From Phoronis australis (Eukaryota; Animalia; Phoronida): 64,000 nucleotides of DNA. The stretch is taken from NCBI GenBank assembly GCA_002633005.1, contig NMRA01000015.1, positions 1,717,766-1,781,765 on the forward strand. The letters run 5' to 3'. Made by a program: the position numbers and the translations under genes. Within the stretch, counting starts at the first letter, position 1, and every line of letters begins with the position of its first letter. This document shows, piece after piece, positions 8,256 to 45,100 of this stretch. Below the pieces are notes generated by a model, which saw only the letters and a program-made list of their open reading frames with translations, did not search any database and was not told the origin of the DNA.

Positions 8256-8591
8256 NNNNNNNNNNNNNNNNNNNNNNNNNNNNNNNNNNNNNNNNNNNNN
8301 NNNNNNNNNNNNNNNNNNNNNNNNNNNNNNNNNNNNNNNNNNNNNNNNNNNNNNNNNNNNNNNNNNNNNNNNNNNNNNNNNNNNNNNNNNNNNNNNNNNN
8401 NNNNNNNNNNNNNNNNNNNNNNNNNNNNNNNNNNNNNNNNNNNNNNNNNNNNNNNNNNNNNNNNNNNNNNNNNNNNNNNNNNNNNNNNNNNNNNNNNNNN
8501 NNNNNNNNNNNNNNNNNNNNNNNNNNNNNNNNNNNNNNNNNNNNNNNNNNNNNNNNNNNNNNNNNNNNNNNNNNNNNNNNNNNNNNNNNNN
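8256..8591. other. Assembly gap (N run)
   Basis: 336 N. Confidence 1.
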
Positions 8592-9452
8592 GAAGGCATA
8601 GAAGCCTGTACCAAGTTTCTTAGTCAACGTAATAATCCTAATGTACCTACATCTTTTATTCGCTCTCTTCTTGAACATGTACTTACCATGAATCATTTTA
8701 CCTTTAATAATAATCACTATCTCCAAATATTAGGCACAGCCATGGGAACTAGGGTTGCTCCTACCTTTGCTAACCTCTTTATGGGAAATCTTGAAAACAG
8801 CTTCATCAAATCCTGCTCTGAAAAACCCCTTCTCTGGCTAAGATACATTGATGACATTTTTATGATATGGACCCATGGTCCACAAAAATTAGATGTATTT
8901 TTAGAAAATATTAACAAATTTCACCCTACTATAAAGTTCACTCATGACATTTCTCAAAATAAAGTCTCATTTTTAGATGTAACTGTCACTCTTAATAATG
9001 ATAAACTAGAAACTGACTTATTCTGTAAAGAAACTGACAAACACCAGTATCTGTCATATCACTCGTGTCATCCCTTTCATTGCAAGAAAAGCCTTCCATA
9101 TAGCCTTGCCCTAAGAATTCGACGCATTTGTTCAGAAGAAACTTCCTTTAATAACCGTTTAAAAGAACTCAAGTACTATCTAATTCAACGTCATTTCCCT
9201 TTACATCTTATACACAAACAGTTTGACAAAGTCCGCTCAATTACTCGAAATGAATCTTTAAGAACTAAAACTAAAGGCAATACTACTAATAGAATACCTT
9301 TCATAACTATGTTCAATCCATGTTTAAACGGAATTAGCCACGTCTTCAAAAAACATCTTTCTACGCTGCATATTTCCCCTCAAATGAAAAACCTATTTCC
9401 TCATCCCCCTATAATTTCTTGGAGACTTCGATATCTTCCAACACAATTGTAG
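8592..9452 (+). mobile_element. Penelope-like retroelement reverse transcriptase fragment
   Basis: Open from the gap edge (EGIEAC...), GTAMGTRVAPTFANLFMG, WLRYIDDIF, SFLDVTV and thumb region KKSLPYSLALRIRRICS; stops near PPIISWR, before any GIY-YIG domain. Confidence 0.88.
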
Positions 9453-10381
9453 TTCGAGCTCTTAGATTTGGTTATGGATTGTGTTCTATGCAGAATTAGT
9501 CATAAAGATTGTTTCTGCGTTGTATAACATGCACACTGTACTGAAAAGCTGGTAAACAATGTATGACCTTACACTTGAGCCATATATTCAAATACATGTC
9601 CATGTCCTTATGTTTGAAGTCATTTGCATTCTGGGATAAATTAAAGAATGAATTTGAATACGAAATTCGCATCGGTTGGTCATATGTAATATTTTATTTT
9701 TACCTATTATATATTTTCATGGAATGGTGTAAGGCTGAGGGAGATTTGTAAAACCCTGAACCACGCGGTGGATCCACCACTGCTAATGTATTCTGAGAAA
9801 CCAAATTATAGCACTGCTGCTGCTAAAGGACAAGAAACCCGCGCCCGTCACAGATAACTGTTCTAATTATGACCACTGAACGCTATTGGAAACTGATCTG
9901 AACGTCTTCCTAATTCAAGTGATAAGTGGTTCCTGCACTCGGAGAAAATTGTCAGTTACCATTGTTTGAGACCATGCACGCTGTCACATTTGCCAACTAG
10001 TTTCAGAACTTCATCGCAAGCAAGAGAATTAACAATAGTCGGTTTCTCCTTGCTCAGGAGTCACTTCTAACCTACTGTATATCATGTAACAATTTGAGAC
10101 CAATTTCATAACATCATAATAGCAAAAGTGGTCCTAATCTTAAGAAAGTTTCAAGGATGGAAGATGATGTTATTGCCATTTTAAGTCTCAGATTCCTTTT
10201 CTATGCAATAAAACTTACCTGACATAACTGTTAACTTGTTTAAGAGGCATGTCTGTATACTTAATGCTATTCTGGGTTTTGTTTTAGACAAGACTAACCT
10301 CCGATAGTGAACTTTGAGTGTGTGATCAACTATGTAAACAGCAGCTTGAACTGATAAGACACTGACTGGGATGACTGGAAG

Positions 10382-13300
10382 ATGAACTACCTTGCACGCT
10401 GGGCTCTGTCAAGATCTGTTCTCCATTCTTGGCCTGCATTGAGAGGAAGGCTATGGCAGACATCCCGAACACTGACCGGTGTAGTGGACAGCGATGCAGG
10501 TGGACAGGAGTTGGAGTTGACCAGTGTCCGCTACAATGTGCAACGTGGCCAGTACTCGCGAGTTGAAGATAAGGACGTGCAGGTCTTTGAAGGATTAGTT
10601 CCCGGTCGTGTTACGACTACTGACTTGGAAGGATACAATACAGACTGGCTTAAGACATGTAGAGGTATGATGCTCAAGTTAACGTAGAATGACATGCTTG
10701 CTTTTTCTCTTCTGAAAGAATTTGACATTTTTTCTTATCTGAGCTTTTTATAGCGTCTCTAAGGTGTTTGTTCAAGGGAAGGCTGAGATGCCTTCCTTTT
10801 AAATTTTCAGTTTGATGACTTATGCTGCTGGGAATAGAGTATATTCTTGTAGTAGTGGAGATCTGTATCTTGTGACAATAATTATACTGTCCTGGGCTTA
10901 CATCAACACTGGGAGATATCTATCCCTAACTGATATGTGTTTTGAGCTTTTCCCATATCACTTGGATACAAAATTTTGAATAGTTCATGGTAATCACAGT
11001 TGGAACAAGAGTCACTTTGTTTTTATTGGAATGTGAAAGTGTCACCGTTTTGGTTCAGATATACTGGACAACAAAGACACATACACACATATTTGGCTCC
11101 GAAATTCACTGTCTCTGTGGCCCTGTACTTCTGTAATTAATTGTCGATCTGCCACTACAGGTGAAAGCCAGGTCCTGCTGAAGCCAAAGACGACCGAGGA
11201 AGTGTCGGCCATATTGAAGTATTGCAATGAACGCCACCTGGCTGTTTGCCCACAAGGTGGCAACACTGGTCTAGTTGGTGGGAGTGTGCCGGTATTTGAT
11301 GAGGTGATAGTGTCTACACAGCTGATGAATCAGGTGATCAGCCTGGACCAGGTGTCAGGTAATGTTGACTGGATCAAGTGTTAAATATGCTCCTGTGCTG
11401 AGGGGCCCTGTCCACCCTACACGGTCACTCTTCACTCACACTTTGTCATTATACATACCATAGCACTTTCTGCCAAACTTATACTTCTTCTGTCTTCATC
11501 TACATGGAGTGGTTGTTTCCATAAATCTATTATCACATGAAAGCAGTGTCTTATGCTCTGGAATACAAACTGTTATGGAGCCTACAGTATATCTCAATGT
11601 TGTCAAGGCTTCAGTGAACTAGGATACAACATTCTGAATCCTAGAGTGAACAACTGCTCTAAAAATCAGTGGTCATCAATCAGCTAATGAAGCCACCAAA
11701 AGTTTAAAGTATCAGTAAGTTGCAACCCTGTAATCATTCACTTGTTAAATGTTGTCCCTCATTAATTGGTGCATGTCTTTACAGGAGCACTAGTGTGCCA
11801 GGCTGGATGTATTCTAGAGAACTTAAGCACATACTTGTCAGAGTATGACATGATGATGCCTCTGGACCTTGGAGCCAAAGGAAGTTGTAACATTGGTGGT
11901 AACATAGCAACTAACGCTGGAGGACTCAGGCTTCTTAGATACGGATCTCTGCATGGCACAGTGCTGGGAGTAGAAGCGGTAAATACACCAGACCTGCTCA
12001 CATATTTAACAGTTTTAGTGCACGTGCCCTTTGAAAGCTTGCTGTGTTACCAAAGGGACTGGGTAGATGTGCAGTATGAAGTCTTTCTGCGAATACACAG
12101 CATTTAAACATTTGAATTCAGTAATTATTCAGATTATGAATCTTTTAAAGATAGCTGAAAACTGATACGTGCACATCCTATAGCACAAGTTTATGAGATA
12201 TCTTCAGTTGTTGTAACACAGTGATTGCAAAAATATGCATCTCGTCTACTGTACAGTGAAAGGAAAGGGTTGATTTTTGCGACAATTCAAGCAATTCAAC
12301 ATCAATAGCAAAAGAAGCAAGTGATTTGTATTTTTTCAAACATTTTCATTTTCAGGTACTTGCTAACGGTGAAGTGGTTGATTGTCTTTCATCTCTGAGA
12401 AAAGACAACACGGGCTACGATGTTAAACAGTTGTTCATTGGCTCAGAGGGAACCCTGGGAATTGTAACGGCTGCGTCCATTCTGTGCCCTCGGTTACCTA
12501 GTGCGGTCAATGTAGCCTTTCTGGGTAGGACGTTTTAATGTGCATAGACGAAAAGTGTTTGTACCACTCAAGGTTTTGTAACCAGAAACTTCAAAGTAAC
12601 ACAAGAGCAGACAATTTCGCGTATCATCAAAATCCGAATTCCAGACCTCTATCTTACCTCCACTAGATGTCTCTACCATTGCGGTCAGCTTTCTTATACT
12701 TACACACAACAAAAGTGAGAAACCATACTAATGTGTTTAGTATCTTGACTGTGAAGAGCATTCAACGACTCTTGCTTTAGTTAGACTTGAATGAGGTCAT
12801 GGAGGAACCAAGAAAATTGCCCAAATTCGGCTTACAGACTTTGGAATTTCGAATCTCAGAAATGACTGGCAGTGGCACATCTACGTTTTCAGTAAGGGGG
12901 GTTTAGGATTCAAGCGAATCCGAAGCGTGTAGCGCCGAGCGCAGGGAAGGTCCCACGTAAAAATTTTTGTGGTTTTTAATTGCTGATTTCGTTTTTCTGG
13001 CGAAAATTTGTTTAATTTCTATTTTTGACCCTGTCCCGAGGGGGCGTTTGAACCCCCTGAACCCCCCTGTAGATCCGCCTCTGACTGGTTGCCTTGGAGT
13101 CGCGTGAAACTTTCACGCACTATTCATTATGCACTGTTCTCCTGTGAGGAATTGTTTTCAAAATGTTCTACTTTTGCACGAGGGGTTATCAAAAATAAGA
13201 CATTCACGATTTTTATGGAAAATACTCAAAAGTTGTTTGAAATGAAAACAAAATGGGAAGTTAGAAAACTGTAACAGCGTTTTTGAGCTTTGGTTTTGAA

Positions 13301-16054
13301 AATTCATATCAAATGAAATTTGTTGGTCATATTATTGATGTCATTTTTTTGCTATCAATGTACCCTTTTCCACTAAATATTACCAAAAACACATGGTCAC
13401 ACGACTCAATTAAGTTTACAGGCTTTCAACTTTCGCAAAATGTACGGCTAATATTTATAGTTTTCTAAATATTTTGCTGAATACACAAACTTGATAATGT
13501 CTTACACCACCTTAAGTGCAGTTGGAAATGAGATGGATGTGATGACTTTAAGGCAAATAAGAATGGTCTGATTACGTGTAGTCAATAAGTAGAATGAAAG
13601 AAATAGAAATGTACGACAAGTCTGGAACCTGTTGCTGCCAGTCGATGAGTTGCCAAAAGTATTTTGTTGTTGCTAAGCTTATGGGATGAACTTGTTTTCA
13701 TTAAAGAAACGATGTTTCGATGTTATTTAGATAACACACAGTATTTGTGTCCAGTATATCTACTTGTATTGAAGGTGAATGGATACATCAAAATTTCAAA
13801 AATGCTCTGTGATAGAAATTACTGAACTGACTAATTAGTAACACATTCTATGTGATGAATGAAGTACACCATTGATTCATAGCTGTTGAGGAAAACTGTT
13901 TCATTTTGTTTGTTGTAGGTTGTGACAAGTTTGAAGATGTTCTGACCGTGTTCCAAAAAGGCAAAGGAATGCTGGGAGAAATACTATCCGCCTTTGAGAT
14001 GATGGACTCTGAAACTCTCCGTGTTGTTGTTGAAAACTTGAAAGTGTCCAACCCACTGAGTGACTATCCATTTTATATCCTGATTGAGACTTCAGGCTCT
14101 AATGGTGCTCACGATGAGGAGAAACTCAACAGTTTCCTGGAGCATGTTATGTCTGAAGGAGTAGTGAATGATGGACTGGTCTGTATGGACAATACACAGA
14201 TGATGGTGAGTTTTGTGATTAATTTAATGTATATTGTTTTAGTACAGCCATGCCTGTAGCTAGCAGGTGTGTAATTGATGTGAATAAACATCTCCACTTG
14301 CAGCTGAAGTGTTTTTGCTAGGACAATCATTTAGTCTAATGACTAAATTTCTCATGGGTGTCAATTATCGTCGTAACGGCTGGGCAGATTTTGATGAAAT
14401 GTGGCATGTGCGTTTCTATATAGGATGCATTGGCACCGCTTGACTTTCAGACTCACCATCGCTGGCACTTCCTATTGGAATTTTTGTTTTGAATAAACTA
14501 CTTGTCCATTCATTGTTGTCAAAACGACAGATTTTGACAAAACTTTACACAGAAATACACAGTGGGGTTGTGCTGGCATCACTCAGTTTTCGCACAGATT
14601 TGACTTCAATAGCACCAGCTGCTATAGCTTTTTAATTTTTGGCAAGGTTACTTCTTGTTTATCAACACAAGGGCTTATGGTTAAAGTGCCCCTGCAACCT
14701 CTGATTATTGGACAGATTGGACTACCGTAGCATCTCCTGTTGGACATTTTAATTTTGACAAGGTATTGCCTCTTCATTGATTATTGGTAAAATGGCTTGA
14801 CAGACTTTTTGATGGACCTTAATGCAGCAATGTATGGCTGGGATGCACCAGCACCGATGGATTTCAGCTTTAATATCATAGTGTACAAACTATTCTAATT
14901 AGTATGTTAATGATGGTAACAAACACCCTTAGAAGCATGCAGTTTGCTGTGCAGTTGCGGGTGTATTTCAACATTTTGCCTTGCATTTGTATCCAATGAC
15001 GTAAACTAATTTGCGCAGACACTATGAGATGGGTGTTCTTGAGTTCTGGCATTGATGTTTTATTGTAGAATGTGTGGGGTCTTCGTGAACGTGCGGCTGA
15101 AGCGCTGATGCATGATGGTTATTGTTATAAGTATGATGTTTCACTGCCATTGGCTAACTTCTATAACTTGGTGGAAGACATGAGAGTCAGGCTGGCTGGG
15201 AAGTGCACAAGAATTGTGGGATACGGGCATGTTGGAGATGGTGAGTAATTAAAAATAAATTGTTTTCACAGGAAGTGTTGTTGAGTGAAATACAGAACAG
15301 AAATTGGGGCAGACGTGGTAAAATTAGGAGTGTGTGAAATGTAAGAATGGCCAGTTGGTGATTTGGGCTAGACTGCTCGAAGAAGCTTGTTAAGAGAGCG
15401 TCTGTTATAGTTGGAAGGAATTAAAAACATTGACGCCGACGCCCTGGTAAGGTATAACTCTTTGCGCAAAAGGTACTTATAACAACGTGTCTTTGATGTT
15501 TCAATCACTGGTGAGGCATAATTTACCAAAAAGCTTCCTCTGCAAGTATAGGAGCCTCACCTTCTCTGTCTTGGAGCAGATAGAGACATTTTTTACCGCC
15601 TAATCATTTGTATGATTGGTCATACTACCGAATCTCAATGTTATACAAGACATGATTGGTCATAATACCTAATCTCAATGTTACACAAGACATGATTGGT
15701 CATATCAATGAGAACTTGAATGACTTTTTTAATTTTCTTCTTTAATTGTGTAAATCACGTGTCCATAAACAGAGTTAGAATAAGTGTTTTTTTTCGGTAG
15801 GTAACCTTCACTTCAATGTGACCAGCCCGAAATATGACCATGCATTGATGGACTTGATTGAGCCATATATTTATGAGTGGACTTCAAAGTACAGAGGAAG
15901 TATATCTGCTGAGCATGGACTAGGATTTAAAAAGAAAGATTTCATCCATTTCAGCAAATCTTCATCAGCAGTAAACATTATGAAACAGATGAAACACGTT
16001 TTAGATCCTAAAGGCATTTTGAATCCATATAAAGTGCTGCCTGAAATGAGTTGA
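10382..16054 (+). CDS. D2HGDH: D-2-hydroxyglutarate dehydrogenase, mitochondrial, copy 1 (7 coding exons, ~518 aa)
   Basis: Exons 10382-10664, 11161-11358, 11785-11978, 12356-12524, 13919-14205, 15069-15240, 15801-16054 (1557 nt, all GT-AG, phases consistent). Motifs [75 protein letters not shown]. Arg-rich N-terminus. AATAAA at 16692. Confidence 0.95.
12870..13083. mobile_element. MITE family D (CAGTGGCGGAT-type termini), copy 1
   Basis: cagtggcacatctac ... gtagatccgcctctg; ACTGG on both flanks is a possible target duplication. Confidence 0.65.
15611..15703 (+). repeat. ~40-bp tandem repeat, ~2.3 copies
   Basis: atgattggtcata.tacc.aatctcaatgtta.acaagac repeated. Confidence 0.8.
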
Positions 16055-17793
16055 TTTTACTAAATGATCACATTTTGTTGGGTGGTTTTCGATATTAAAT
16101 TTCTTAGTTTCTAGATCAATCTTTAGTAAGCCAATGACAATGAAGAAATTTAGTGCACTTGGAAAATTGGTTTCCAATATTAAACTTAGCTTTTGAAAAT
16201 GATGTGCTGTGCTTCAGATCTTTCTGGTGAACATTATTGTTCTAGTGATGTTGTGAGCAGTGCTGTTTATCAATGTACAGACAACTGTTGAATCTCCTAA
16301 TCACCATGGTGACAGTAGTACAAAATGAACCATTCTGTGTTGGATGCTGGATTTGTTTGTTATTCCTAAGTCTTGTTGTTTGTTTCGTTCATACAGTACG
16401 GGCTGCATTTTCCGTTTGTCTTGTTGACTTCCCACTGAGCTCGAGGGCTCAGGTCTGACTTAGTGATGTTTTTGTCAGAATCAGTTGCAAAGAGAATGGT
16501 CCTCATCTCATCTCAAAGAGAATGGTCCTACTTAAAGTAAAATTATCACTTCATTGGATCCAATAGTAAGATATTCCTGAAGACTGTTTATGTTTGCTGG
16601 TGTAACACTTGCTAATGCCATCAGTCTTAACTTTCGCAGGCTACAAGAATAATGCTTAAGTTATACCTTCTTGTCCCTTGTTGTAAACAAAAATAAATAA
16701 TTTGTAAAAAGTACTTAAATCCTGTTATTATGTTTTGTGTGGCTTGTTTTTTGTAGCACGTGTGTTTCACAGCTTATTCCTGTTGAGAGTCATGAAAACA
16801 TTATAAACCTTGTTCACAATCGAGCAAAATCATCGGCAACTGACCATCTGTGTCTAACGAACTTCTTGAGTCTGATGTAAAACACTAATAACCTGTCAGT
16901 CCTTCTCAAACCTAGGAAGCAAATCTATTCTGAATAAGCAACGACTCAAGTGAGACCGATTTTATAATGGCAACCCAGTAAACATGCCGGTACCGGGCTG
17001 GTGCTGGCTTGGCGGTACCATAATGTTAACTGGAAAGTGGGCTTTCACAAAAGTTATTTTTTAACAGAAGGTGCAGGTGTATTACCCCTTAAAATCATGT
17101 TCTAAAGGTAAAACATTACAAAATAATTTTTAACACAGTCCCTATGTGTCAAAAGCTATGTGTCAATTGACAGTAATTTGAATAAATAATTGTAGGACCC
17201 ATAAACATCGATGGTAGGATCTTAGAAAAATGTCCATATTTGTTCCACTTATACATGATGGTCTATCAAAAAAAAAATAACTTCATTTTTATGAAAATAA
17301 AAATAAAAGTACTTTGCATAAAATGAAAACAAAATGAAAACTCATAAAAATGTAACAAGGTTTTTCAGATTGCATGTTGAACTTTTATGTCAGTCGAAAA
17401 TTGGTCATGTCATTTATACAAACTGTTGTTTTGCTAAATTTTACTTAAAATTCATGGTCTGGTGATCCAATTAATGACAGATTTGTAGAAAGTCACAAAT
17501 CAAATGTTCTATTTTCTACTTTCAGAACTTGTATATTTTTAATCAGTTGAAATCTACAGTTTTGTTGACATCAGGCTATTACAGCCATTTCTATTTCTGT
17601 ATATTTACTTACTAGATTCCTAACAGTGTTTTATCCAGAAGTTTTACTTTTGTCAACTTAGATTTTCATTTCTTATCATTCTCTTTTGAAAGATTCCCAT
17701 AATGCTGTGCTGAACTTTGTCATTTCCTCCTAAACTTGTATAATATGTAAACATCGGCTGCTACTGATAAGATATCAGGGGAGAGAATGCAAG

Positions 17794-20700
17794 ATGAACT
17801 GCCTTGCATATTATTGTCTGTCAAAATCAGTTGTCCCTTCTTGGCCATTATTACGACGGAGGTTTGTGCAGAAGTTGTCCAGAACACTGACCAGTGTGGT
17901 GGACAGCAGGGCAACTGGACAGGAGTTGGAGTTGACGAGTGTCCGTTACAATGTGCAGCGCGGCCAGTACTCGCGAGTTGAAGACAAGGACTTGCACTTC
18001 TTTGAAGGATTAGTTCCTGGTCGTGTGATTACTACTGATTTGGAAGGATACAACACAGACTGGTCCAAAGTATGTCGAGGTATGATACATTATCTAATAG
18101 AGAGTTGTCAACAAGCCTTTTTTATTTGAAGATTGTTTTCTTAAAGCACGTTCTCCTGGATTATTTAACATTATAGGTGAAGTAACTTAAAGTTGCCTTT
18201 CACTTCTGTTTAGCTGTCAATGTTGAATTCTTAACCAAAGTGTCTGGCGTTTAAAAGCATTACCACACCCATTCTATCTTGTATTGTTGTGGAATAAGCA
18301 AGCAACTTGAGTCACTTGGCCTTATTCAGAGCCATGGATTGCGCATGAGTCTGGAATTTTTTGTTAACTAAGCAGGCCCTGAGTTACTTTTGTGCCATCT
18401 CATAAAATTTCCGTTCCCAAAATACGGTCTGATTTGTTTAACTTCAATTTGCAGTATATAGATGTTCTACATACGTGTAGCCCTGCTTTTTGGTTAATGA
18501 GAAGTGTTGCAATTGGTTTTGTAGTTACTGATCATGCTAGAGAATGTATATTTCAGGGGCGAATACAGGATTTTGGGTTTTTGAGTTGGGGGGGGGGGGG
18601 GGNCAGACATTCGCATCCCCGAGCTGCCAAATGGAATCTGGGAGAATTTTAGGGGGCCCTCTTGTCCCTCCCCCCTAAATCCGCCACTGCTTATGTAAAC
18701 TTTATAAAACTGCACCAATTAATGGGCTTTTTTGCACACTTGCCGGAGTCAGAGAAATGAGTTGTTGTGTCACGTGACCATCACGACTGAGGAGGTGCTT
18801 ATAAAATTAGGTAGCCTCGCATAGCAAGGCATCAGTGAGTGTTTGAAACGTAGAATTATCGCGGAGTAAAATGCCAGCGTAAAAGACGAGACGACATTTA
18901 GAACTGGTTCGGAGAGAAGTAAGCGATGTAATCTCTGTACTCGGCTAAGATGTGTGTTCAAATTTCAAAGTAGCTGAGAAACCTTTTTAGAGTTTTCTAA
19001 GCTGCGCTACATCAGAAAACCGGTGGGACAACTAAGAAGCGTTCTCTCAAGCAATGGCATTTCTAAAAATAACTTACGGCCTTAGTTTAATGTTTGAGTA
19101 TCACCTACAATCCTTTGTGAATCCTACGGATAACGAAAGGCAATATTTTAATGCACACAAATCGTCTCTCGAGTTCAAAATAACGCCACTCTCAGAACTG
19201 AATAAGTCAGTGTAGGCCTATCACTCCAGTAACCTTCAGGATTTATGCCGGGGTTATTTACTTGAGTATAATGCACATGCTGAAGTTTATTAGGATTGTT
19301 TCTCGATCGCTTTCCGCTATTAACTGTACAATCGAAGCACACATAACTAGTAGAATTAAAAACATACAGTTAGTACTATATACTTGAGATTCATGGCAAT
19401 AGGGCCGTCCTGGATTACACGACACTTGAATCTCGCTGTATTTACCCACAATGCCATAAGCATTCGTCAGGCACATTTGCTGTCTCATTTTCGAGCCACT
19501 GGAGTTTCAAATGTTATTTGTTGTTGTCTGATTCTGAACAAGTTTTTCTCGGTTGCATTACTCTTTTCGTTCTTCCTATGTTAACGAAGTATTAGTGTTA
19601 TGTTGAGGGCTGCAACACCGGCGTGAAAAAGTTTTATAAACTGGACAAGTACCCGTGGATACGTGATCTAAGTTCTTTGCCTTCCTGACATTAATGAGAG
19701 ACACGAGAATGTGCTTGATTTCAAAAACTAGATCACGTACATTCTTATTTCCATAATAAAGGTTAATAAAAGTCATCTGTAATGCATAAAAACATCTCCT
19801 GTTGAGTGACAATATCTGACGAGTGCAGTTTTCAAATGCATATTCTATGCTACTGTTACTGAGTGCCGAACCGTGTCAGTCTGCATTCTTTCCAGGAATC
19901 GTCATAAAAAATGCAAGGAAAACTATGCCTTGACATTGTTGTTCTCAATGCAGAGTAAAGAATCGTTATCAAATAAATACATGCAAGGTTGGTTACATTT
20001 AATTCAACTGACATCACAACAGTCGCGTTTCAGATTACACTCTTTCCAAGAATCGTCATGAAAAAATGCTTGAAGTGTGCCTCGGGAGTTGTTGTTCTCA
20101 ATGCAGGGCAAAGAATTGTTATCCGATAAATACATATGTACACAGACGTTCTCTTGTACTGCACAAGGTTGATGGCATTCACTTCAACAGACATTACAAT
20201 AGTCGCATTTCAGTTTGCGTTCTTTCCAAGGATCGTCATGAAAAAATGCTTGAAATGCTATTCCCAGAAATTGTTGTTCACAATGCTGGGTAAAGAATTG
20301 TTATCAGTTTTCTGTGTTTTTTGCTTCTTAATTGACCCCAATATCCTCAGAAATTTCAGGCAATATTTCCAATTTCTATTTATTATTATTAGTGAGACAA
20401 TGGATGAGTTAATCCATAACACAAACTATTTCACTGTCCAGCAGCTTCTTTAATTTACATACCACAAAAAATGAGATTTCATGTTTAACTTAAAATTTGA
20501 CACTGATTTTGAGGGAAAACTGATGTACCCGACTGTTAAACTATTTATCAGAGTAGGAATTGTTTAAACTACATTTAGTAATATAACACAAGAAAGTAAA
20601 CTGCAACGCATAGTATGATTCAAATCCTTAACGTAGGGTACGTGTATCACCCATTTATGGCTTTTTGTCTGGTCTGAAGTGCACTGTACTCTTAAGATAG

Positions 20701-23700
20701 GAAACTGGTTGTCTTTCTCATCGGAATGTGTGAATGAATGAGATTATGAAAAACTAGCGTTCATTGCACTGTAGTCATGATATGAATAAAAGAATGAAAA
20801 GAAAAAACAAGAAATTGTGGTTTTAATATGGGTGTGCCGTCTGTATGAAAACATACTTAGTCGGCACGCATCTGTTTGCAAATTTTATAATGAACACATG
20901 ATTTACTCTGTGGATGGGCGTCATTACACAGGTTATAGCTAACAGGTGTTTAGCAGCTTTCGGTGCGACAATAGAGTGAAGACTGGTTCTAGTTAATCAC
21001 TGTATTAATTTTGGCCGCATGTACTCCAGTCTATACTACGTAATGTCTGTTCTATGCTGCAGCTAGTGCTGCAAAACCTCAACCTGGGGCGGATTCAGGA
21101 TTTTGAGTTGGGGGGCAGGGCAGAGTATGAGCCAGGAATTTTCCCGTCTGACACTTACACCCCGAGTTACCAAATTTTATATGGGAGAATTTTTGGGGTA
21201 CCATGGCCCCCTTGGCCCCCCTCTAAATCCGCCACTGTATTTTCATGTAGAAGTTTTTTGGAAGTTTTGTCTGCTGTATTGCCTCAGTTTTGGGGCACTG
21301 TTAATTAAATTATGCAGGTGAAAGTCATGTGCTGTTGAAGCCAAAGACAACTGAGGAAGTGTCAGCCATATTGAAGTACTGCAACGAACGCCACCTTGCT
21401 GTTTGCCCACAAGGTGGCAACACTGGTCTGGTTGGTGGGAGTGTGCCAGTATTTGATGAGGTGATAGTGTCCACACAGCTGATGAATCAAGTGATCAGCC
21501 TGGACCAGGTGTCAGGTAATGCAGTGTGGCACCTTGGTTGTTCAGTATTGTATTATGTGTGATTAGCCTTGAAACAAATCAAGTTTCAGTTAGCCACATT
21601 GTAGAGTTTTCATTGGTACTTCTTCACTTATTTAGCTCACAATGTGGCCGACATGTGGAATTTTATTTTGAAAGATGAAGGAAAAAAGTAGTCTATAGTT
21701 TGTACGGTGTGGATGCCCTAAAACAACATTGGTTAAAGTATGCATTATTTGTAGCCAAATATCGGCCTTTGAAAAAAAGCAAAACGTCTGTAGTTTTCGC
21801 TGTTTTTTATGCGAAATAAGTGGAGATTGATTACAATTAATAGTTGGTTGTAATAACATCAGATGATATGGGTAAGAATCCCCATTGTTGGACTTGCTAC
21901 ATGTAATGAAGGGGAGTTACGTAAATGACAAATGATGAGGACAAACTTTGGTGATGCATCGAAAATTCAATGCTTTTGTGACAAACTTGAGTCAGTTTTC
22001 ATACAACAAGCAGTTGTAACACAGAGTGCATGTCTTTACAGGAGCGCTAATGTGTCAGGCGGGATGTATTCTAGAGAACTTGAACGCATACTTGTCAGAA
22101 TATGACATGGTGATGCCTCTGGACCTTGGAGCCAAAGGAAGTTGTAACATTGGTGGTAACATAGCAACTAACGCTGGAGGACTCAGGCTTCTTAGATACG
22201 GATCTCTACATGGCACAGTGCTGGGAGTAGAAGCGGTAAAGCAGGGCTCAAATTCCAAACATTTTGGAACATAAGGGCTATTTGATTGGATAGTCTCATA
22301 GTTCACAGTTTACGGCATGGGCGCCCCTCATGTGCACAAAATTGTTGAAACCTTCTGGAGGTCCTGGCTACCGTGTGTGGATAGATGAAGTAGTTTTTAA
22401 ATTTAAATGCGGGTGCCTCAATTAAACTTCATGGTCTTACATTTTTCAGTCCTGTTCACATCATGCTCCAAACTAGTTTAACTGCCTTGTCACTTTGTTT
22501 CTTATGTACTCTGACTGTGTTTTTAAAACAGTTTTCTTTTTGAAATTGCACTGGAAGATTATTTTGAAAAATTAATTATGGTAAATCTGCACTTATTTTG
22601 TACAGAAATAAAATAATTTCCTCAAACTTCAGTTTTTCGATTTTTCAATGACAGATTACTTTTCTACAAATAATGGAATTTACCTATAGTCAGTTTATAA
22701 AATATACACAATACAAACCACGCTAAGAATAGACTAAAACTTTCTGCGTATTTATTTCTGTGGAGAAATTCAGCAAAATATATACATAAAACGTACCGAG
22801 AGTGGCGTTGATGAAGTATCGACCTCATTTGACCTGCCTTTTGAACTTTCCATGTCAGCGGTCGCTGTTGAAGTAGTGCGGGAGGTGAATACAGACAACG
22901 TTATAACATGACTGCAATATTTCCCTCGACTGATTCAAGGCGTATGGGATAAAATTTTGTATCTTGGCCAGATTGTGCGCCAAATAAGTGAAGAGTTATA
23001 CAAAATGTATGTAAAACTAGCAAGTCTCACAGAGCTGTTGTTGCTCTTGTTCTCATTATTTTCATTTTCAGGTACTTGCTAACGGTGAAGTGGTTGATTG
23101 TCTTTCATCTCTGAGAAAGGACAACACTGGCTACGATGTTAAACAGTTATTTATTGGTTCCGAGGGAACCTTGGGAATTGTAACGGCTGCATCCATTCTA
23201 TGTCCTCGATTGCCTAGTGCGGTCAACCTGGCATTTCTGGGTAGGAGGATGTTTTCAGTCTGTAATGTTAGTAATTCCAAATTATTTCATGGGTCTGTGA
23301 AGTGGGCTGCATTTTTATTGTGAAAGAGAGGCAACAATTAGACTCTGGGCAGATATCCTTTTGATATTTGAAATTAGTTATGACGAGATTCAGTGCTCAG
23401 TTTCTGTGTCATTGGAAAACTGGACAAAATATGACACTTACGATATGCTGAATTGATCATCAAAGCCCTGATAAATATTTCCCAGAAACATGTTGTGGAA
23501 GAACCTGTGTGAAGTGATTTAAGCCCCTAACTGTTATACCAGTCTCGTCTTGTTCTTTACTCGGAGCAGATTCTGAAATGTTTTCAAGGCTTGAGGAAGC
23601 TGACAGGTTGTTATTGCTTCAGACCAGGCCTGTTCAGTTGCTCGTCTTTGCCAGTTAGTTTCACTCGTCAAGGTAGTATTTTCGTCAGGAATTCCGAGCA

Positions 23701-26700
23701 ATTTACCATTGTCACTTAAAATACAAAGGATAAGAATGTGATGACCTTGATTTGGAAGAGCTGATGAGCCTGAGAAGAAAGTTATGTTGTGATGACAAAT
23801 GTTCTTCAATTTGCTACAACAATCCTAAAATTGCCTTGTTTATATTTTTCAGAGGCTTAATTACCACATTGCCGGAAATGGTCAAAATTTTACCTTTTGT
23901 TGTTTGGCAACAGTTACACCTTACAAACCACGCTAAAAATAAAGTAAATTTTCCTGAAAAGTTATTTTTGTTGGAAAATTTTGACGTAACGAAATTTCAC
24001 CCGTCCACCATATTGTGTCCAACAAGCTGAAAAATTTTTACCCTAATACCAGAACCTGGGCCCGGTCTCCAATCTTTTTACTCGAAATGGAACTCGAAAT
24101 TAGGTTTGGCATTTTCTACTCTACTTTTGGGCGAACTCAAGATAAGTGTCTATTATTCTATGCTCGAGTACACAATAACTTACGTAGATAATTTATTGCC
24201 CTTAGTTCACAGTTTGTAAACCCAATATTAAAGCAGTAAGTTCGAGTTTGAACTCGAAATTTCGAGTTTTTACTCGAGTTTGTGGCACAGGGCAAACTTG
24301 AACTAGAAACTCCTATGCATAAACTATAATGTATTCGAGTACAGTCTGATAACTAATTGTCTTAAGTTCGCACAAAAGGAGCAGAGAAATTGCCAAAAAT
24401 AGTTTCGAGTTCGTTTCGAGTACAAAGATTAGAGACCGGACCCTGGTTTTTAACAACTGTTCAACAGTTTAACAGGCTGTATCAGCAAACAATAGTGATT
24501 TCCTGGCTACACTATTAACTATGAGTTGGGTTCCAGTGAGCTGTGGAGTATATCCTGTCGTGTGATAATATCTCATTGAACTTCAAACAGTTGAGCTTTC
24601 CAGGCTGTCTTCTTTCTGGTAGGTGGACACAGCTCTTGTATACTGTCCATGTGTGGTGACTGATCTTGGGGCAAAACTTGGAGATGTTTGTCATTTAATA
24701 AAATGTTGCTAACTCTAGTTAGCCTATTTTTCTCGATTGTGAATGTGAAGTTACAAGCACGTGCTACTTTGTGTTGCCTAATTTACGCGCATTTTAACGA
24801 TTTCAGGTTGTGAAAAGTTTGAAGATGTTCTTAGTGTGTTTCAAAAAAGCAAAGGAATGCTGGGAGAAATACTATCCGCCTTTGAAATGATGGACTTTGA
24901 GACTGTTAAAGTTGTTGTTGAAAACTTGAAAGTGTCCAGCCCACTGAGTGACTATCCATTTTATATCCTGATTGAGACTTCAGGCTCTAATGGTGCTCAC
25001 GATGAGGAGAAACTCAACAGTTTCCTGGAGCATGTTATGTCTGAAGGAGTAGTGAATGATGGACTGGTCTGTATGGACAATACACAGATGATGGTGAGTT
25101 TTCAATGTGACTGAATATATTGCTTCCCTCAACCAATGAGCTTAAGGCCTCAACATTCACAGTTCTTTTGCTTTTTGACAGGAAGTACAAGTAAACACTT
25201 GCTGGGAACATTGTATCAAAATTCTTACGTCTGCTGTAACAGTATAGGTTTACCTGGGGTACATGAGAATAAAAATAGGCTGCTACACCTTGTGAGAAAA
25301 GAATTTTACCCATGAGAAGTGAAAGCTGTTTAGTGACAATGGTCATGCACTGCCCATGATAGAGGATTGCCCATGCAGGCAAACTTTCCATCAACCAACT
25401 GTTGTATTCACACGTCCAGGCTTAGTGGATGGTGCATCTAAAATTCTTGCCTTCATTTGCTCATTCATCTGCAAACCCCAACTACAACAAACTAAAACAT
25501 TTGGAGAACCTAAACGTTTTAGGTGCACCATCTTAACATGGTGACAACTGAATGCATAAGATACAAGATCGTAAGCTTAAACATTCAACATCAAGGCATG
25601 TCCATGAAGAAACTGGCAGACCCAGTGACCATTCTCTAAACATGGAGACAGTCTTTGAAATTTTCTTTCACTGCACAATGATTTTAAAATAATATCATGA
25701 TTATTTTGTTACACAAAATTGCTCATTAAACAACTAAAACATGTCAGGCAGATGTATGTTGATTTCAGAAAATCTGGAGTCTACGTGATCTAGTTGCTGA
25801 GGCAATGTTCCATGATGGCCACATCTATTTGTATGACATTTCTCTGCCACTGACTCACTTCTACCACCTAGTGGAAGATATGAGAGTGAGACTGTCTGGG
25901 AACTGCACGAGAATTGTGGGATATGGGCATGTTGGAGACGGTAAGTTGGTTTGAGACATGTTCAGTGGTCAGGCTCGTATCTGAAAAGTTTGGTGAAATC
26001 ATGCAAGTCTGTGCGAAAGATCCCCAAGTAGTTTAGGCAAAGCATTTGATTTCACTAATTTTCATTCACGAGTGACTGACTGGTTCAGGCTTTATCATCA
26101 TTGTGAATCTTGGACTGCCAATGGGATTGTGATGGGAAGGAGGGACTTCAAATGGGAAAGATGAACAAAAAATGTGACAAAAAAAACCTAAAACATGGGA
26201 TGAATACACCCCAAACATGTGATGGATGGGCCCAAAAATTAGGATGAATGTATGCAACAAAATGGAACAAAAGAGGGTTGGTAAGAGTTACAGACAATTA
26301 TTTTGCTTCAAAGATTTATGGATCTAGTGTTTTAACAACCATTTGGTCTTTAAAATGTCTCTTATAACAAAGTTTAGAACCCTTTTTAAGATAAATACAT
26401 ACTTGTTGAGACCACTTTCTATTGTACTGACTGTTGCTTTCTTAGTATTCATAGAAAGTGTGACTGCAATGCTGATGGTCATTCACTGTGGATTCTTTTT
26501 GTAGGCAACCTCCATTTCAATGTGTCCAGCCCTGAATACGACCCGGAACTACTGGGAAAAATAGAACCTTACATCTACGAATGGACTGCAAAGCACAGAG
26601 GAAGTATTTCTGCCGAACATGGGCTAGGATTTAAAAAGAAAGATTTCATTCATTTCAATAAATCACCAGCAGTAGTTAACATAATGAAACAGATGAAATG

Positions 26701-26755
26701 TCTTTTAGACCCCAAAGGTATTTTAAATCCATATAAAGTGTTTCCTGGTAGTTGA
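17794..26755 (+). CDS. D2HGDH: D-2-hydroxyglutarate dehydrogenase-like tandem paralog, copy 2 (7 coding exons, ~518 aa)
   Basis: Exons 17794-18079, 21318-21515, 22042-22235, 23072-23240, 24807-25093, 25769-25940, 26505-26755 (1557 nt). Internal exon sizes equal copy 1; no stops or frameshifts; AATAAA at 26801. Confidence 0.92.
18554..18689. mobile_element. MITE family D, copy 2
   Basis: caggggcgaatacagga ... cccctaaatccgccactg. Confidence 0.65.
19870..20305 (+). repeat. Diverged tandem repeat, 3 units of ~155-180 bp
   Basis: tctttcca.gaatcgtcat.aaaaa.tgc ... ttgttgttc.caatgc.g.g.aaagaat.gttatc recurs at ~19887, 20041 and 20221. Confidence 0.75.
21084..21237. mobile_element. MITE family D, copy 3
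   Basis: ctggggcggattcaggattttgagttggggg ... ctaaatccgccactg; shares tgggagaattt with copy 2. Confidence 0.65.
24059..24442. mobile_element. PIF/Harbinger-type MITE with CTG target-site duplication
   Basis: TIRs ggcccggtctccaatctttttactcgaaa / tttcgagtacaaagattagagaccggacc; CTG at 24056-24058 and 24443-24445; long imperfect subterminal inverted repeats. Confidence 0.8.
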
Positions 26756-38300: not shown

Positions 38301-41300
38301 AATGTGGAAGGCATTATGTCACAATGTATGGGTTTGAAGACCTTTGATTTTGTTCTTGCTTGAGACCATACTCAGTGCATAAAATGATACGACTTAACAA
38401 GCCATCTTGTCAGGCCTAGTATCTAGCAATAAGAAAGTGTCAGTTCTGTGTAAGTCCATAAATCGCCTCTAATTTGAAACAAGGAACAAACTGGGTCCAA
38501 TTTCAGAGCTCTTACTGATCTCAATCCTGGGGGAAGATGTTGTGAATTATTTGGGGGTGCATGATTCCTCTTCCTAGATACTTAGACACATCAGACCGTG
38601 CATGATAATATATGGACACGAATGTATAGGTGGTTCTAAGATGGGTGTGGATTCAGCTGGCAACTTAGATGTGATTTTTCTCTGTTTCTGTAGGACAAAA
38701 CAATATGTAATTCGAGCTTTGATTGGAGTTTTTTGTTGCAGGACTCATGTACGAAAGAGACTGCCAGCCCACCCTAATGTTGTTGACATGAGGCTAGTGC
38801 TGGTGGGAGACACTCCTCTTCTCACCTCCGCCATAAAAGAGTTCCCTGCTGCCTTACCACAGAGACTGTGTAGCAGTGGCTGTGCAAGGAATAAGACCAT
38901 GTTTATTGTAATGAAAAGGTAGGTCTTGAGTACTGTCATACTATGCTATATTTAGTTATGGTATGTTGACATTATTGTATCGATTGTGATCAAAAGATTT
39001 AGTGGCATTATCTGCCTACCAAGCACTTTATTTCAGGGAGAACAAATATTGTAGCTTTCAAAATGGATCACACAACCTTTTTAGTTATACCGGCTACTTG
39101 TTTTTGTGTACATTCAACGAATGTATAAAGACTTTGTTGCACTGTCGGACGTTTACTGATGTCTGTAAATGTTCTTGTCGTATTTGCAAGTCAGTCATGC
39201 ATACAATGGATCTGATCTTGTTGTGTAACTGCAAATTTGGCTGATCAGCATAGCCTACACAGAGCAAAAATTAATACCTGTGTAACAGTAAGGTAAATTA
39301 TGATAGCTTGTACAGGCACTGATGATCATTGGATTGATTGACCAGGTACCCTATGACCCTGCGTGACTACCTGCACCAAGACCTGCCACAGCCCAGGGAG
39401 TCCACATTACTGTTGGCTCAGTTACTAGAGGCGGTCTGTCATTTCAACCATCACCAGGTGGCGCACAGGGATCTCAAGTCTGACAACATTCTTGTGGAGT
39501 TTTTACATGGTAATAATGTACTTTGTAATCACTTTGTGATACATGGTAATAACGTACTTTGTAATCACTTTGCACAAGTATCTCTAAATGCTCTGCTCTT
39601 GTTATTTGATTTTGTAGTGAATGTATGTAAGGGAGGGGTTGAGAATGTGAAAGCAATTTCTGGGGATGCGCCAATATTTTGAACTTGCCAAATATGTGTC
39701 AATGAATAGCACAGGATCATGTTACTTTGAAATACAGCACATTTATATTTTATTTGCTTTAATTTAACCATCCGTACGGTGTTTAAATTTGAGCGTGTTT
39801 TTGAAAGAATGGTACAAACAAGGGTAAAGTTCACACTGCATGTACATACCTGGGGTGCACCAAATCATTGGAGGTCATCCATGTGTTTATTAGTTAAAAC
39901 CAGAATGACCAGCTTTTATCGCCTGCTACTGCTTTTGCATACTGGAGGAAATATGCTCAAGGTTATCGTTATTTGCTTATGCTAAAATAGTAATATTTTG
40001 ACATCATGCATGGTTCACTTCATTTTTTGCTGATGCCTGTCCCTACATTTTACCTGAAGATTGCACAGTTTTCAATCTTGAGGTCACCTTAGGCGCTCGT
40101 CTCCTACAATCAGATTTAAACTTTGTTCTTCTTTCAGAGGACAGTGCCAGTCTAGTGGTCACTGACTTTGGTTGTTGCATCAGTGACGGTCCCCTGCAGA
40201 TGCCATACTTAAACTACGAAATATCTAAAGGAGGGAATGCAGCTCTGATGGCACCTGAGGTAGGGACAAACTGAACACTACCAAATTTCTATTTGTTTAA
40301 CATTAATTTCTAGCAACTGTTCATTGATCACAGTGTGCAATGAATTTACATACTGTTTAATTTAACTGTGAACAGTTGTAAATGAAGCTATTGTTCAATG
40401 CTAATAACAGTGCATTCTCCTGTCGGCTTGTGAGCTCATTATTAAGGGGTTTATGAACAAATCAATTTGCCTGAGTTTTTACAAGAATTATTTCTATTTG
40501 GAATTTTTGAAAATCAAAATATTGCAGGTCGAGTTGTTTACCTACTGTTACACAAACTTTCTTTAGATCAGCGTGGAGCGTCCCGGTGTAGGTGCCGTAC
40601 TAGACTTCACCAGGTCAGATGTTTGGGCAGTGGGTGCCTTGGCTTATGAAATATTTGGAATGACGAACCCTTTCTACACATGCAAGGATGGTACAAGACT
40701 GGACAGCAGACACTACAAGGAGAGTGATCTTCCATCACTACCTCTACATGTCCCCGTGTCTGTGAAGAAGGTCATCAGTATGCTTCTCAAGAGGTGTCCA
40801 AGACAGGTAACTTTATTCAAAAAGGTTTTGAGACAAGAGTTTTTTATGTGTAATTGATTTTCAAGAGAAGTAATGCAGTTGGAAGGTTTTCTGAAGTGTA
40901 GTGCAGTAGAGTTCAGTATTCCAATTTAATAGACTAGTGTTCTTTATGAATCATTTGACAACAAACTATTGGACTTTGTTAAAATGGAAAATGTTTGTTG
41001 GAATTGCATTGCAGAGTTGCTTAATATTTGGCCTGAAAGCTCTTTCAGGATATACAGAACATCTGTAATATGGATTGGATGCAGTGAGCCATGAGTTGGC
41101 CAGTAGCTGGGGTTGTCTATTCACAACCTGTTTTAATTTGTTTACAGCTGGTTAATGTGTTCTGGTTGTTACAAGAGATTATCTGTTGTTATAAGGCTCT
41201 GCTTGTTGTTGATGCAATTACTTACTTAAGCAGATGCTTATTCTAGAATGGTTGGTTCCTAAATAAGGGATAGAAAGGCTCTGTAATTTCAGTGCAAAAT

Positions 41301-42178: not shown

Positions 42179-45100
42179 TCATTTCTTTGTCTTAACTTTT
42201 ATCCAGTCGTCAATTTTCTTCTTCAAATCAGGAACTGAAACAGAATAAGCTATAGGTCAACACTTCAGACGTGACTGGCGAAAAATGTAACACAATAGGG
42301 CCCTTGATGTCTCAATTCTGGGACTGAATATCACCCTAATTCTTTGCTCGAAAACAATTAAAAATCACATGAAAGTCCCCTCTCTCAGCCCAAAAATCCC
42401 CTCTAGGTTAAAATCAAATTGGAATTGAAATTATACATTCCACTTGACATCAAACGGGTTTTATTCACTGCAAAAGTCATTCACTTTTTAGCCATGTAAC
42501 AACCTGGATGTAAAAAACTGCATGTGGCTCTAGTAACTACATAGTATCTACTGGCTCACTAGGGGCAGTGAGAGTGAGAGTGAGAGTGACTGGTCTAGTT
42601 ACAGTACAATAACAGCCAGAAAAATATTTCCAGATTTTGAGCTATGGAATTGAAAACACCAAAAATGCTTGGGTTCTGCCTTAAAGCCCTGTGCATCACC
42701 ATCTCCAACACTATTGTTGTTCCTCTTTTGGAATAGGACCCTTTGTTTTGGTGCGGCTATAAACCAGCATTCTGCCTAAGTGGCAAATTTTTGATATACA
42801 ACTATAAAACTAGTCTCGGATGATTTTAGGACGTGCAAAGAATCAAAACTGTTATTTGTTGAGACCATGCTTGGCGCATAGAGTGACACCATGACCAGTC
42901 AACTTGTAGAACTTGATCTCGAGCAGTAACGAACTATGACTGAGGAACAATTTGAGACTAATGTCATTATAGTAAGTTGCTACTTGTGATGGATGGTGGG
43001 TTTATAGTTACTTTGTATAGCACAAGTCACGGGTCTACAGTTACACAAGATAACAACAGTGAACAAATGGAGTTCACAGACTGAGTTGTCACTGTAACTT
43101 GATGTGACCATTGCAAAACCTAATTATCACGACCTAATTAGCAGACTTTAAGGACTTGACAATGCCAAGACAGTACCGTCCTACCTGGTTCTAACATGTC
43201 CTCGGATAGATGCTGCCTATTGAAAGGGTCTGTGGCCGAGTTGAGCAGATGTCGATGTATAATTGGTCGGTCCATGATAGCACCACTGGGTAGTTTGACA
43301 GGGTCGGTCATCAGAGTGTCCATCAGAGGATCTATGAACATTAAATAATGGAACATCAACAAAGTGCTACTGTTCACATACTTCTACAGTAAGTTAAAAT
43401 TTAAAAAAATATTACAGCTGTTAAGTTCAACCTAGAATCACTTGTCATTTGATGGAAAGATAAGTCGATGCTCATCAATTCACTTTTGTCAAGTAATGTG
43501 GACAGATTGGTTGACAAAACAAGATAGCAACATGCTGAGCAAAGAAACATGACCTGACCTTTGAACTCATCTGGTATATCGCCGTAATCCATCTCCGCCT
43601 GGCTCTTGGCTACAAGTATCTCTTCAACTTTAGTCTGTATACTGTGGAACTGTTCTACCTCTATGGGTGTCTTGATATCGGCCTTCACCATGCGTGCGAT
43701 GGCGTCATCAAACAACTCTTTGTTATATGATCTCTGAAAGTGTCATTAAAGGGATATCTGATTTAAAAAAGTGCTTCTCAAATTTTGCATGATTTCCCCG
43801 ACACTGAGTTGATAACTAAAATATCTTGGTTTATCAAATAAGTACCTGCTGAAGAAAATGAAACCAAGAGGGACATCTAGTAATTAATTGAGTTTGGCTT
43901 AGATGCTCTTTTGTCTAATTACTAACTATAATAACCCAGGGCTGTGTTGCATGAAACTTGTCCACTGGATAATTTTATTGTTGCAACGACAGCGTGATGC
44001 ACCATAGTGTGATGTCACTGCTGTTATAACATACATGCAACAGGGACCAGTGCCAGGTTGCATATAACAGTCCCCACTAGGGACTCTACCAAGTTCCCTA
44101 ACTCTGCGGTGTATTAAAAGCATGAAAATTTTGAGACATACAGTTGAGAAAACAGATCAGCCTCCCGTTCAGTAACGCTAGGACCTAGCTTAAAAGCAAG
44201 ACTTTGCGAGATTACGCGAGATATTGCCGTGTATTTTAAATAAGAACACGTGACCTTGACTAGCTTTTGGCTAGGTCCTAGCGTAGGTCCTAGCGTCTAC
44301 TGAACGCACGCCAAGTTTGTGTATAATACTAGAATAAAAACTAACAAAAATTAGCGACGTTGCGTCCCCATCTCACTTATGATTCGGATATTTTTAGCCA
44401 CCTGTGCACCACTGGACAAGATTTCAATACTGATGATGTCACTATCCTAGACTGTGAGGAAGACTGGTTCAGAAGGGGTGTAAAGGAAGCTCTCCATGAG
44501 CCCATTGACAGTCCCTCTTTAAATAAAAGAGGCGGTTTAAGATTCGATTTGTCACAAGTATGGGATGGTGTTCTGATGTCAATGCCACGCCGTCTGGTCA
44601 AAACGCCACCAATTGGCCAGAATAACGATAACGTCACAAGCCAAGATGAAGTCCGTGAGATGCAGACGCAACGTCGCTAAGTTTTTATTCCAGTATTAGA
44701 CTCAAACTTGATCAACAGTGTATTTGTGGGCCTGTGAAAACACTGATGGTCCTTTCTTATCCTCTTTGAGTTTCATTACTACTAATAAGTCAATTTTTGG
44801 CTTTGATACAAATCGAGAGTGAAGTCTATGAAGAATTCTCAATATTATTGAAAATAAGTAGGGAACTTTTCATGAAACGTCACTAATTTAAGGACTAAGT
44901 GTTTGGTCATATGATCAGTTAATGTCATTACTCAAAGAACAGCTCATAACAAATACAAAATAATAGAAAAAATATGAAACAAATTCGCAAAAGATTCAGA
45001 TAACTTGAATGAATCCCTATTTGGGAATGTTTCATGGAACCAGGCACAGAACTATAATTACACACAATCGTTTACACACAGTAAGTCAACACAAGTTGAA

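Follow-up and report, generated by a model that had tools for sequence, protein, structure and literature searches.

The analyzed window, a stretch of 64,000 nucleotides from Phoronis australis, contains two tandem genes for D-2-hydroxyglutarate (D-2-HG) dehydrogenase (D2HGDH) on the plus strand, each composed of seven coding exons and encoding a protein of 518 amino acids. Comparison of the window with itself revealed seven paired blocks (10331-16043 versus 17744-26747), and the two proteins are 86% identical. Copy 1, the canonical D2HGDH, occupies positions 10382..16054 (+), with coding exons at 10382-10664, 11161-11358, 11785-11978, 12356-12524, 13919-14205, 15069-15240, and 15801-16054. 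In agreement with the original prediction, both reading frames are unbroken; all six introns of each gene are of the GT-AG type, and the intron phases match between the copies. Neither a third D2HGDH copy nor an additional exon 6 was found within the window. Other features of the window include (i) a gene for a UBE4-type ubiquitin elongation factor, with exons matching Ufd2P_core (PF10408) at 43401-52740 (-), (ii) two frames at 39338-40857 (+) with weak protein-kinase matches below the cut-off, and (iii) reverse-transcriptase fragments (PF00078) at 1404-2174 (-) and 8592-9452 (+), the latter adjoining an assembly gap of N at 8256-8591.

Exon 1 of copy 2 (17794..18079; all copy 2 positions are on the plus strand) encodes a presequence-like N-terminus, the first 35 residues of which include six Arg or Lys and no Asp or Glu, as obtained by a composition count and not by a targeting predictor. 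The same exon encodes the equivalent of human Trp92, followed by Ser (18064-18066) at the position of Leu93. Exons 2 (21318..21515) and 3 (22042..22235) match the FAD-binding domain PF01565, and exons 5 (24807..25093), 6 (25769..25940), and 7 (26505..26755, ending in the stop codon) match PF02913, all above the cut-off; the Pfam domain search yielded no relevant match for exon 1 or exon 4 (23072..23240). Intron 4 of copy 2 holds an element (24054-24448) with apparent inverted ends, as judged by eye, and deep reads on both strands, which is likely a miniature transposon.

Exon 6, the candidate specificity exon, differs between the copies at 17 of its 57 residues, 12 of them within the first 24, whereas exon 2 and exon 4 each show a single residue difference; these counts from the original prediction were reproduced in a codon table. 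The codon AAG of copy 1 (15129..15131, Lys398) corresponds to TTG, encoding Leu, in copy 2 (25829..25831), again as predicted. This site had been equated with human Lys401, and the gap-free alignment of exon 6 of both copies to human D2HGDH (6LPN) confirms the assignment: the changed residue is the Lys of YKYD, 15 residues past the catalytic Arg, and human numbering, used below, equals copy 1 numbering plus three (at Trp92, Arg386, and Lys401). Among 121 homologues, comprising the best 120 of 404 (mostly vertebrates) and one from a search with exon 6, this column contains 117 Lys, one Leu, one Thr, and two gaps, so Leu is rare here. Exon 6 alone was too insensitive as a homologue query, yielding one match among five candidates.

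The functional roles of the neighboring residues are known from the human enzyme. According to the accessible text of the structural report (PMC7801405), Arg386, His434, His441, Glu475, and His476 provide metal coordination, C1/C2 binding, and catalysis; Thr390, Lys401, Tyr432, and Asn443 contact the C5 carboxylate; and Glu387, Arg388, and Glu391 line the loading channel. The published structures imply removal of the C2 proton followed by hydride transfer to FAD, and the structure papers, in the portions available, describe Lys401 as strictly conserved and as a determinant of D-2-HG specificity. As had been noted earlier, the five catalytic residues are all kept in copy 2: Arg386 (25784-25786) and His434 (25928-25930) in exon 6, and His441 (26513-26515), Glu475 (26615-26617), and His476 (26618-26620) in exon 7. 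Copy 2 also keeps Trp92, Glu311, Glu391, Tyr432 (25922-25924), and Asn443 (26519-26521). Thus, the C5-carboxylate feature Lys401 is absent, whereas other features of the D2HGDH pocket, namely Tyr432, Asn443, and a small residue at position 390, are present; the last is Ala in both copies and in 14 of the 121 homologues. The charged loading channel Glu387/Arg388/Glu391 is not intact and reads Asp (25787-25789), Leu (25790-25792), and Glu. The Glu387 column contains Glu in 119 of the 121 homologues and gaps in the other two, and Arg388 varies also in some Lys-type insect enzymes. A new His appears in copy 2 three residues ahead of Leu401.

At columns with at least 75% conservation, copy 2 departs nine times and copy 1 twice (sign test p=0.065). 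Three of the nine copy 2 departures (Glu387, Arg388, and Lys401) fall among the seven residues that the human structural report assigns to the substrate tail or the loading channel (p=0.014), an enrichment that drops to p=0.07 when Lys401, the reason for looking, is left aside. Clustering of the conserved-site changes of copy 2 near the pocket was not significant (p=0.12). The residue after Trp92 is altered in three Leu-type proteins (Ser in copy 2, Phe in Eriocheir and Macrosteles) and is Leu, Ile, or Met in the Lys-type rows; it may represent a further pocket position.

By its two domains and five catalytic residues, copy 2 is classified as a VAO/PCMH flavoprotein of the 2-hydroxyacid dehydrogenase subfamily. 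Judged from its placement, it is a D2HGDH by descent, and it lacks the Lys401 that characterizes the D2HGDH function (EC 1.1.99.39), the oxidation of D-2-HG and D-malate. In a quick full-length tree, built without an LDHD outgroup and not resolving the phylum of the animal, copy 2 is sister to copy 1 and nested among animal D2HGDH (SH-aLRT 100).

Long identical tracts between the exons of the two genes (156, 97, and 74 bases) might point to an origin of copy 2 by misassembly or from an allele that was not collapsed. This is hardly credible. The introns of the copies cannot be aligned except for 14-16 nt at two acceptors, and the copies are therefore paralogues, not alleles. Moreover, both forms of exon 6, each of them spliced, occur in all three of the raw-read runs, and the reads confirm the exon 5 tract shared by the copies, with one minor variant.

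For the expression analysis, three stranded raw-read runs were mapped, using about 18-19% of each run. At the exon 5-6 junction, copy 2 has 7, 3, and 2 reads in the three runs versus 18, 29, and 31 for copy 1, where the copy 1 count comprises reads from the shared end of exon 5 into copy 1 exon 6; at the exon 6-7 junction the corresponding numbers are 13, 7, and 6 versus 28, 17, and 25. Thus, exon 6 of copy 2 is transcribed and spliced in every run, as a minor transcript accounting for ~6-32% of exon 6 junction reads. No letter other than those of the Leu codon was listed for this site in the three runs, at a depth of about 4-12. An older contig run contains copy 1 exon 6 only. Exon 1 of copy 2 has read depth, and its first four joints are not among the 15 of 62 joints listed; four of the six introns of copy 1 are. 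The identical exon 5 tract prevents phasing with short reads, and a part of the Leu transcripts could therefore be chimeras of copy 1 and copy 2. Three of the four refutation tests set with the original prediction did not overturn it. We attribute a joint linking 25092 to 15068 to reads mis-mapped at the end of exon 5, where the copies are identical, and not to a rearrangement. Within copy 1 (10382-16054), the reads differ from the window at many sites: 20 of the 23 listed variants are synonymous and seven of the 23 carry the copy 2 base (40 of 368 variant rows being listed).

The original prediction took the contrast between exon 6 and exons 2 and 4 as a sign of remodelling. The residue counts stand, and the interpretation does not, as most of the contrast probably comes from gene conversion of exons 2-5. 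Synonymous divergence (dS) is 0.78 in exon 6 and 1.16 in exon 7 versus 0.11-0.44 in exons 2-5, and synonymous differences are found at 40 of 205 sites in exons 2-5 versus 51 of 94 in exons 6-7 (Fisher p=3e-9). Because synonymous divergence is also far higher in exons 6-7, the contrast between exons is by itself no evidence of remodelling. A run of 62 codons with no synonymous difference was matched in none of 10,000 shuffles. In exon 5, the tract 24940-25093 of copy 2 equals 14052-14205 of copy 1 with no mismatch and is a putative gene-conversion tract; in exon 3, 97 nt (22111-22207) are identical to copy 1 letter for letter. From these patterns, we infer that exons 2-5 were homogenised by gene conversion.

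Pairwise dN/dS is 0.23 in exon 6, 0.09 in exon 7, and 0.14 in exons 6-7 together (95% bootstrap interval 0.07-0.24), compared with an expectation of about 0.5 or more if one copy were neutral throughout; in the 5' half of exon 6 it is 0.31 (interval 0-0.94). The copy pair is under purifying selection in exons 6-7, and the pairwise values are compatible with a recent relaxation. No signal of positive selection on exon 6 was seen in pairwise dN/dS, and thus an excess above 1, for which a per-exon comparison had been proposed, was not observed. The excess of non-synonymous change in exon 6 relative to exon 7 was not significant either (p=0.16).

These data bear on the alternative that copy 2 is a spare gene, weakened or broadened in function or slowly decaying, with only an ancestral side activity and with its decay masked by conversion and by the short time since relaxation. 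Several observations agree with it: the minor share of copy 2 in the junction reads, its larger number of departures at conserved columns, the absence of significant clustering among them, and its longer branch in the quick full-length tree (0.21 versus 0.029 for copy 1), by which copy 2 evolves faster. The loss of the Lys cripples the model enzymes and may slow the reaction with all substrates, as the equivalent Lys of the Pseudomonas enzyme helps catalysis generally (PMC13736859, accessible text). On the other hand, exons 6-7 combine a dS near 1 with low dN/dS and no disruption, the whole catalytic set is intact, and the same site has been repeatedly lost in other lineages that retain their catalytic residues. 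We consider a spare of this kind unlikely, while giving it some weight.

The available parts of the published mutant studies indicate what the loss of Lys401 means for the ancestral substrate. Mutation of Lys401 abolished the D-2-HG activity of human D2HGDH (PMC7801405), and K339M in the Pseudomonas enzyme lowered kcat 750-fold; the Pseudomonas study reports a positively charged residue at this site in 22 of 22 homologues and a cost of about 15-fold even for Arg (PMC13736859). Since loss of the Lys cripples both enzymes, copy 2 should be poor on D-2-HG. It might instead still oxidise D-2-HG through compensating changes and differ mainly in expression or kinetics, given that Tyr432 and Asn443, the other ligands of the C5 carboxylate, are kept and that a new His has arisen close to Leu401. 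This seems very improbable in view of the invariable charge and the cost of Arg at this site; besides, copy 2 has lost Arg388 too, and the new His would lie on the opposite face of the strand if side chains alternate as expected.

The reading we favor, and consider reasonably probable, is that copy 2 is a neofunctionalised D-2-hydroxy-acid dehydrogenase acting on a substrate with an uncharged, medium-sized tail rather than on D-2-HG. It is favored by the constraint on exons 6-7, the splicing of copy 2 exon 6, the departures at tail and channel residues, and the recurrence of non-Lys versions in other lineages. Such an enzyme would be mitochondrial, would bind FAD and a metal, and, by analogy with its family, would convert a D-2-hydroxy acid to the keto acid as D2HGDH does. 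The two basic residues proposed to handle the second carboxylate, Lys401 and Arg388, are both lost, and with Leu at both positions the deep pocket and the channel should be less cationic. Ala390 would leave the pocket roomy, and Tyr432 and Asn443 could still form hydrogen bonds. Candidates for the substrate would include 2-hydroxy acids with an aliphatic or branched C4-C6 skeleton and those with a neutral polar tail (thioether, amide, or hydroxyl). Copy 1 would retain the D-2-HG role. Gene conversion would preserve the similarity of the FAD-binding exons 2-5 and leave exons 6-7 free to diverge, a combination with an effect equal to that of alternative exon 6 segments in the insect isoform models described below.

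Versions without Lys401 were observed in other invertebrates. Among the best 150 of 424 representatives nearest to copy 2 exon 6, Lys is present in 138 and missing from 12. A further 106 proteins, drawn from the best 120 of 461 with a query biased to a Leu isoform, provided 111 segments, with Lys in 101, Thr in four, Leu in three, Ser in two, and Ala in one. Leu at position 401 was found in Periplaneta X2, Eriocheir, Macrosteles, Graphocephala, and Amphibalanus; Thr in Thrips, Frankliniella, Chrysoperla, Timema, and Petrolisthes; Ile in Periplaneta X3; Ala in Anabrus and Gryllus; and Ser in Zootermopsis. The Periplaneta RefSeq isoforms X1, X2, and X3, all of 518 amino acids, differ only in the exon 6 segment and have Lys, Leu, and Ile, respectively. 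We opened 30 chosen protein clusters, bearing in mind that clustering at 90% hides isoforms. Lys and non-Lys members share one cluster in Anabrus, Gryllus, Zootermopsis, Thrips, Frankliniella, and Chrysoperla, and in Eriocheir the Leu and Lys forms are separate proteins; most of the other opened clusters (Penaeus, Procambarus, Homarus, Cryptotermes, molluscs, and amphioxus) contain only Lys among the listed members. From the protein models, the insect alternatives of exon 6 appear to be mutually exclusive exons. In the stick-insect models (Timema and Bacillus), the exon 6-7 unit is present in two or three tandem copies, which carry Lys, Ser, Thr, or Ala and suggest duplicated 3' cassettes. Among the matches listed (best 120 of 404, 150 of 424, and 120 of 461) and in the search with exon 6 alone, no close relative provided an orthologue of copy 2.

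In an alignment of 34 chosen rows, the five catalytic residues are intact in every one of the 13 non-Lys rows, 11 of which have a changed Tyr432, compared with none of the 21 Lys rows. The exon 6 tree of these rows, based on 57 columns with the Lys column removed and containing many open forks, places copy 2 as sister to copy 1 (97/93). In the full-length and exon trees alike, copy 2 and the crab Leu exon each stand beside their own Lys copy. The tests reject monophyly of the five Leu rows (AU p=0.0006) and of the 13 non-Lys rows (p=0.004), and at least seven changes between Lys and non-Lys are required on the exon 6 tree; a clade uniting just copy 2 with the crab Leu exon was not rejected (p=0.12, 57 columns). 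The rejection of a single origin indicates that the non-Lys versions arose separately several times.

A broader model is also possible, and we propose it tentatively, with somewhat less confidence than its rejection. Exon 6 may serve as a swappable specificity cassette, and invertebrates may have repeatedly built a second, Lys401-free enzyme, either by tandem duplication and conversion (the Phoronis window and the crab) or via exons spliced in a mutually exclusive manner (cockroach, termite, crickets, thrips, and lacewing). Such enzymes would have an undescribed mitochondrial dehydrogenase activity and would imply a further D-2-hydroxy acid, distinct from both D-2-HG and D-lactate, as a metabolite. 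The pancrustacean non-Lys versions come from database models that are annotated, without exception, as D2HGDH or hypothetical. A naturally selected and expressed Leu version, together with the repeated appearance of such versions in crabs and insects, would point to a hidden activity mis-annotated as D2HGDH. Pairs that differ in 57 residues only (cockroach X1/X2/X3) or mostly in two exons (copy 1 and copy 2) offer ready tests of specificity and could guide the engineering of D-2-hydroxy-acid dehydrogenases and sensors. Literature searches of listings and abstract openings, which covered few subscription papers, retrieved no report of natural Lys401-free D2HGDH paralogues or isoforms and no characterisation of the pancrustacean versions; the accessible part of a study of invertebrate D-LDH (PMC2570690) makes no mention of D-2-hydroxyglutarate.

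Comparison of copy 2 with known systems revealed both shared and distinct features. The original prediction suggested a preference for D-lactate or hydrophobic D-2-hydroxy acids, on which LDHD acts, in contrast to D-2-HG; in a narrower form of this idea, copy 2 would be a D-lactate or glycolate specialist mimicking LDHD or GlcD. Mouse LDHD (PDB 8JDB/8JDC series; PMC10589216), as described in the accessible text, belongs to the same subfamily, has the same catalytic subsite, and, like copy 2, lacks Lys at position 401, where it has Ser365; glycolate oxidase has Thr there. Human D2HGDH itself is weakly active on D-lactate (0.16 versus 2.02 umol/min/mg; PMC7801405, accessible text). However, LDHD is a distant paralogue, reported in that text to be 27% identical to human D2HGDH, and its positions 390/401/443, aligned via the crab Leu protein, are Trp351/Ser365/Ile407 versus Ala/Leu/Asn in copy 2. 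The LDHD/GlcD pocket, which is closed by a large hydrophobic residue at 390 and has small side chains at 401 and 432 and a hydrophobic one at 443, is not matched by the Ala/Leu/Tyr/Asn of copy 2; an LDHD-like pocket is thus not borne out, as Tyr432 and Asn443 are kept and Trp is lacking, and the deep pocket of copy 2 seems ill-suited to a methyl group. A preference for D-lactate is therefore a weaker guess, which we regard as improbable.

The neofunctionalised enzyme that we favor has its closest structural counterpart in human D2HGDH (PDB 6LPN and related), the best structural-database match of copy 2 exon 6, with which copy 2 has domains PF01565 and PF02913 in common. Relative to the human enzyme, copy 2 has Lys401 replaced by Leu, Arg388 by Leu, Glu387 by Asp, and Leu93 by Ser; Thr390 is replaced in both copies. 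The Pseudomonas aeruginosa D2HGDH variants K339M, K339Q, and K339R (PMC13736859) represent engineered loss of the equivalent Lys; in contrast to copy 2, they are, according to the available text, laboratory-made, were assayed with D-2-HG and D-malate only, and carry no natural co-substitutions. The pancrustacean versions have lost Lys401 in the same 57-residue segment as copy 2. In insects, these are alternative segments of one gene, whereas in the Phoronis window the whole gene is present as a tandem copy. In addition, Tyr432 is replaced in most of the pancrustacean versions, and position 390 is Pro in several of them, whereas copy 2 has Tyr432 and Ala390.
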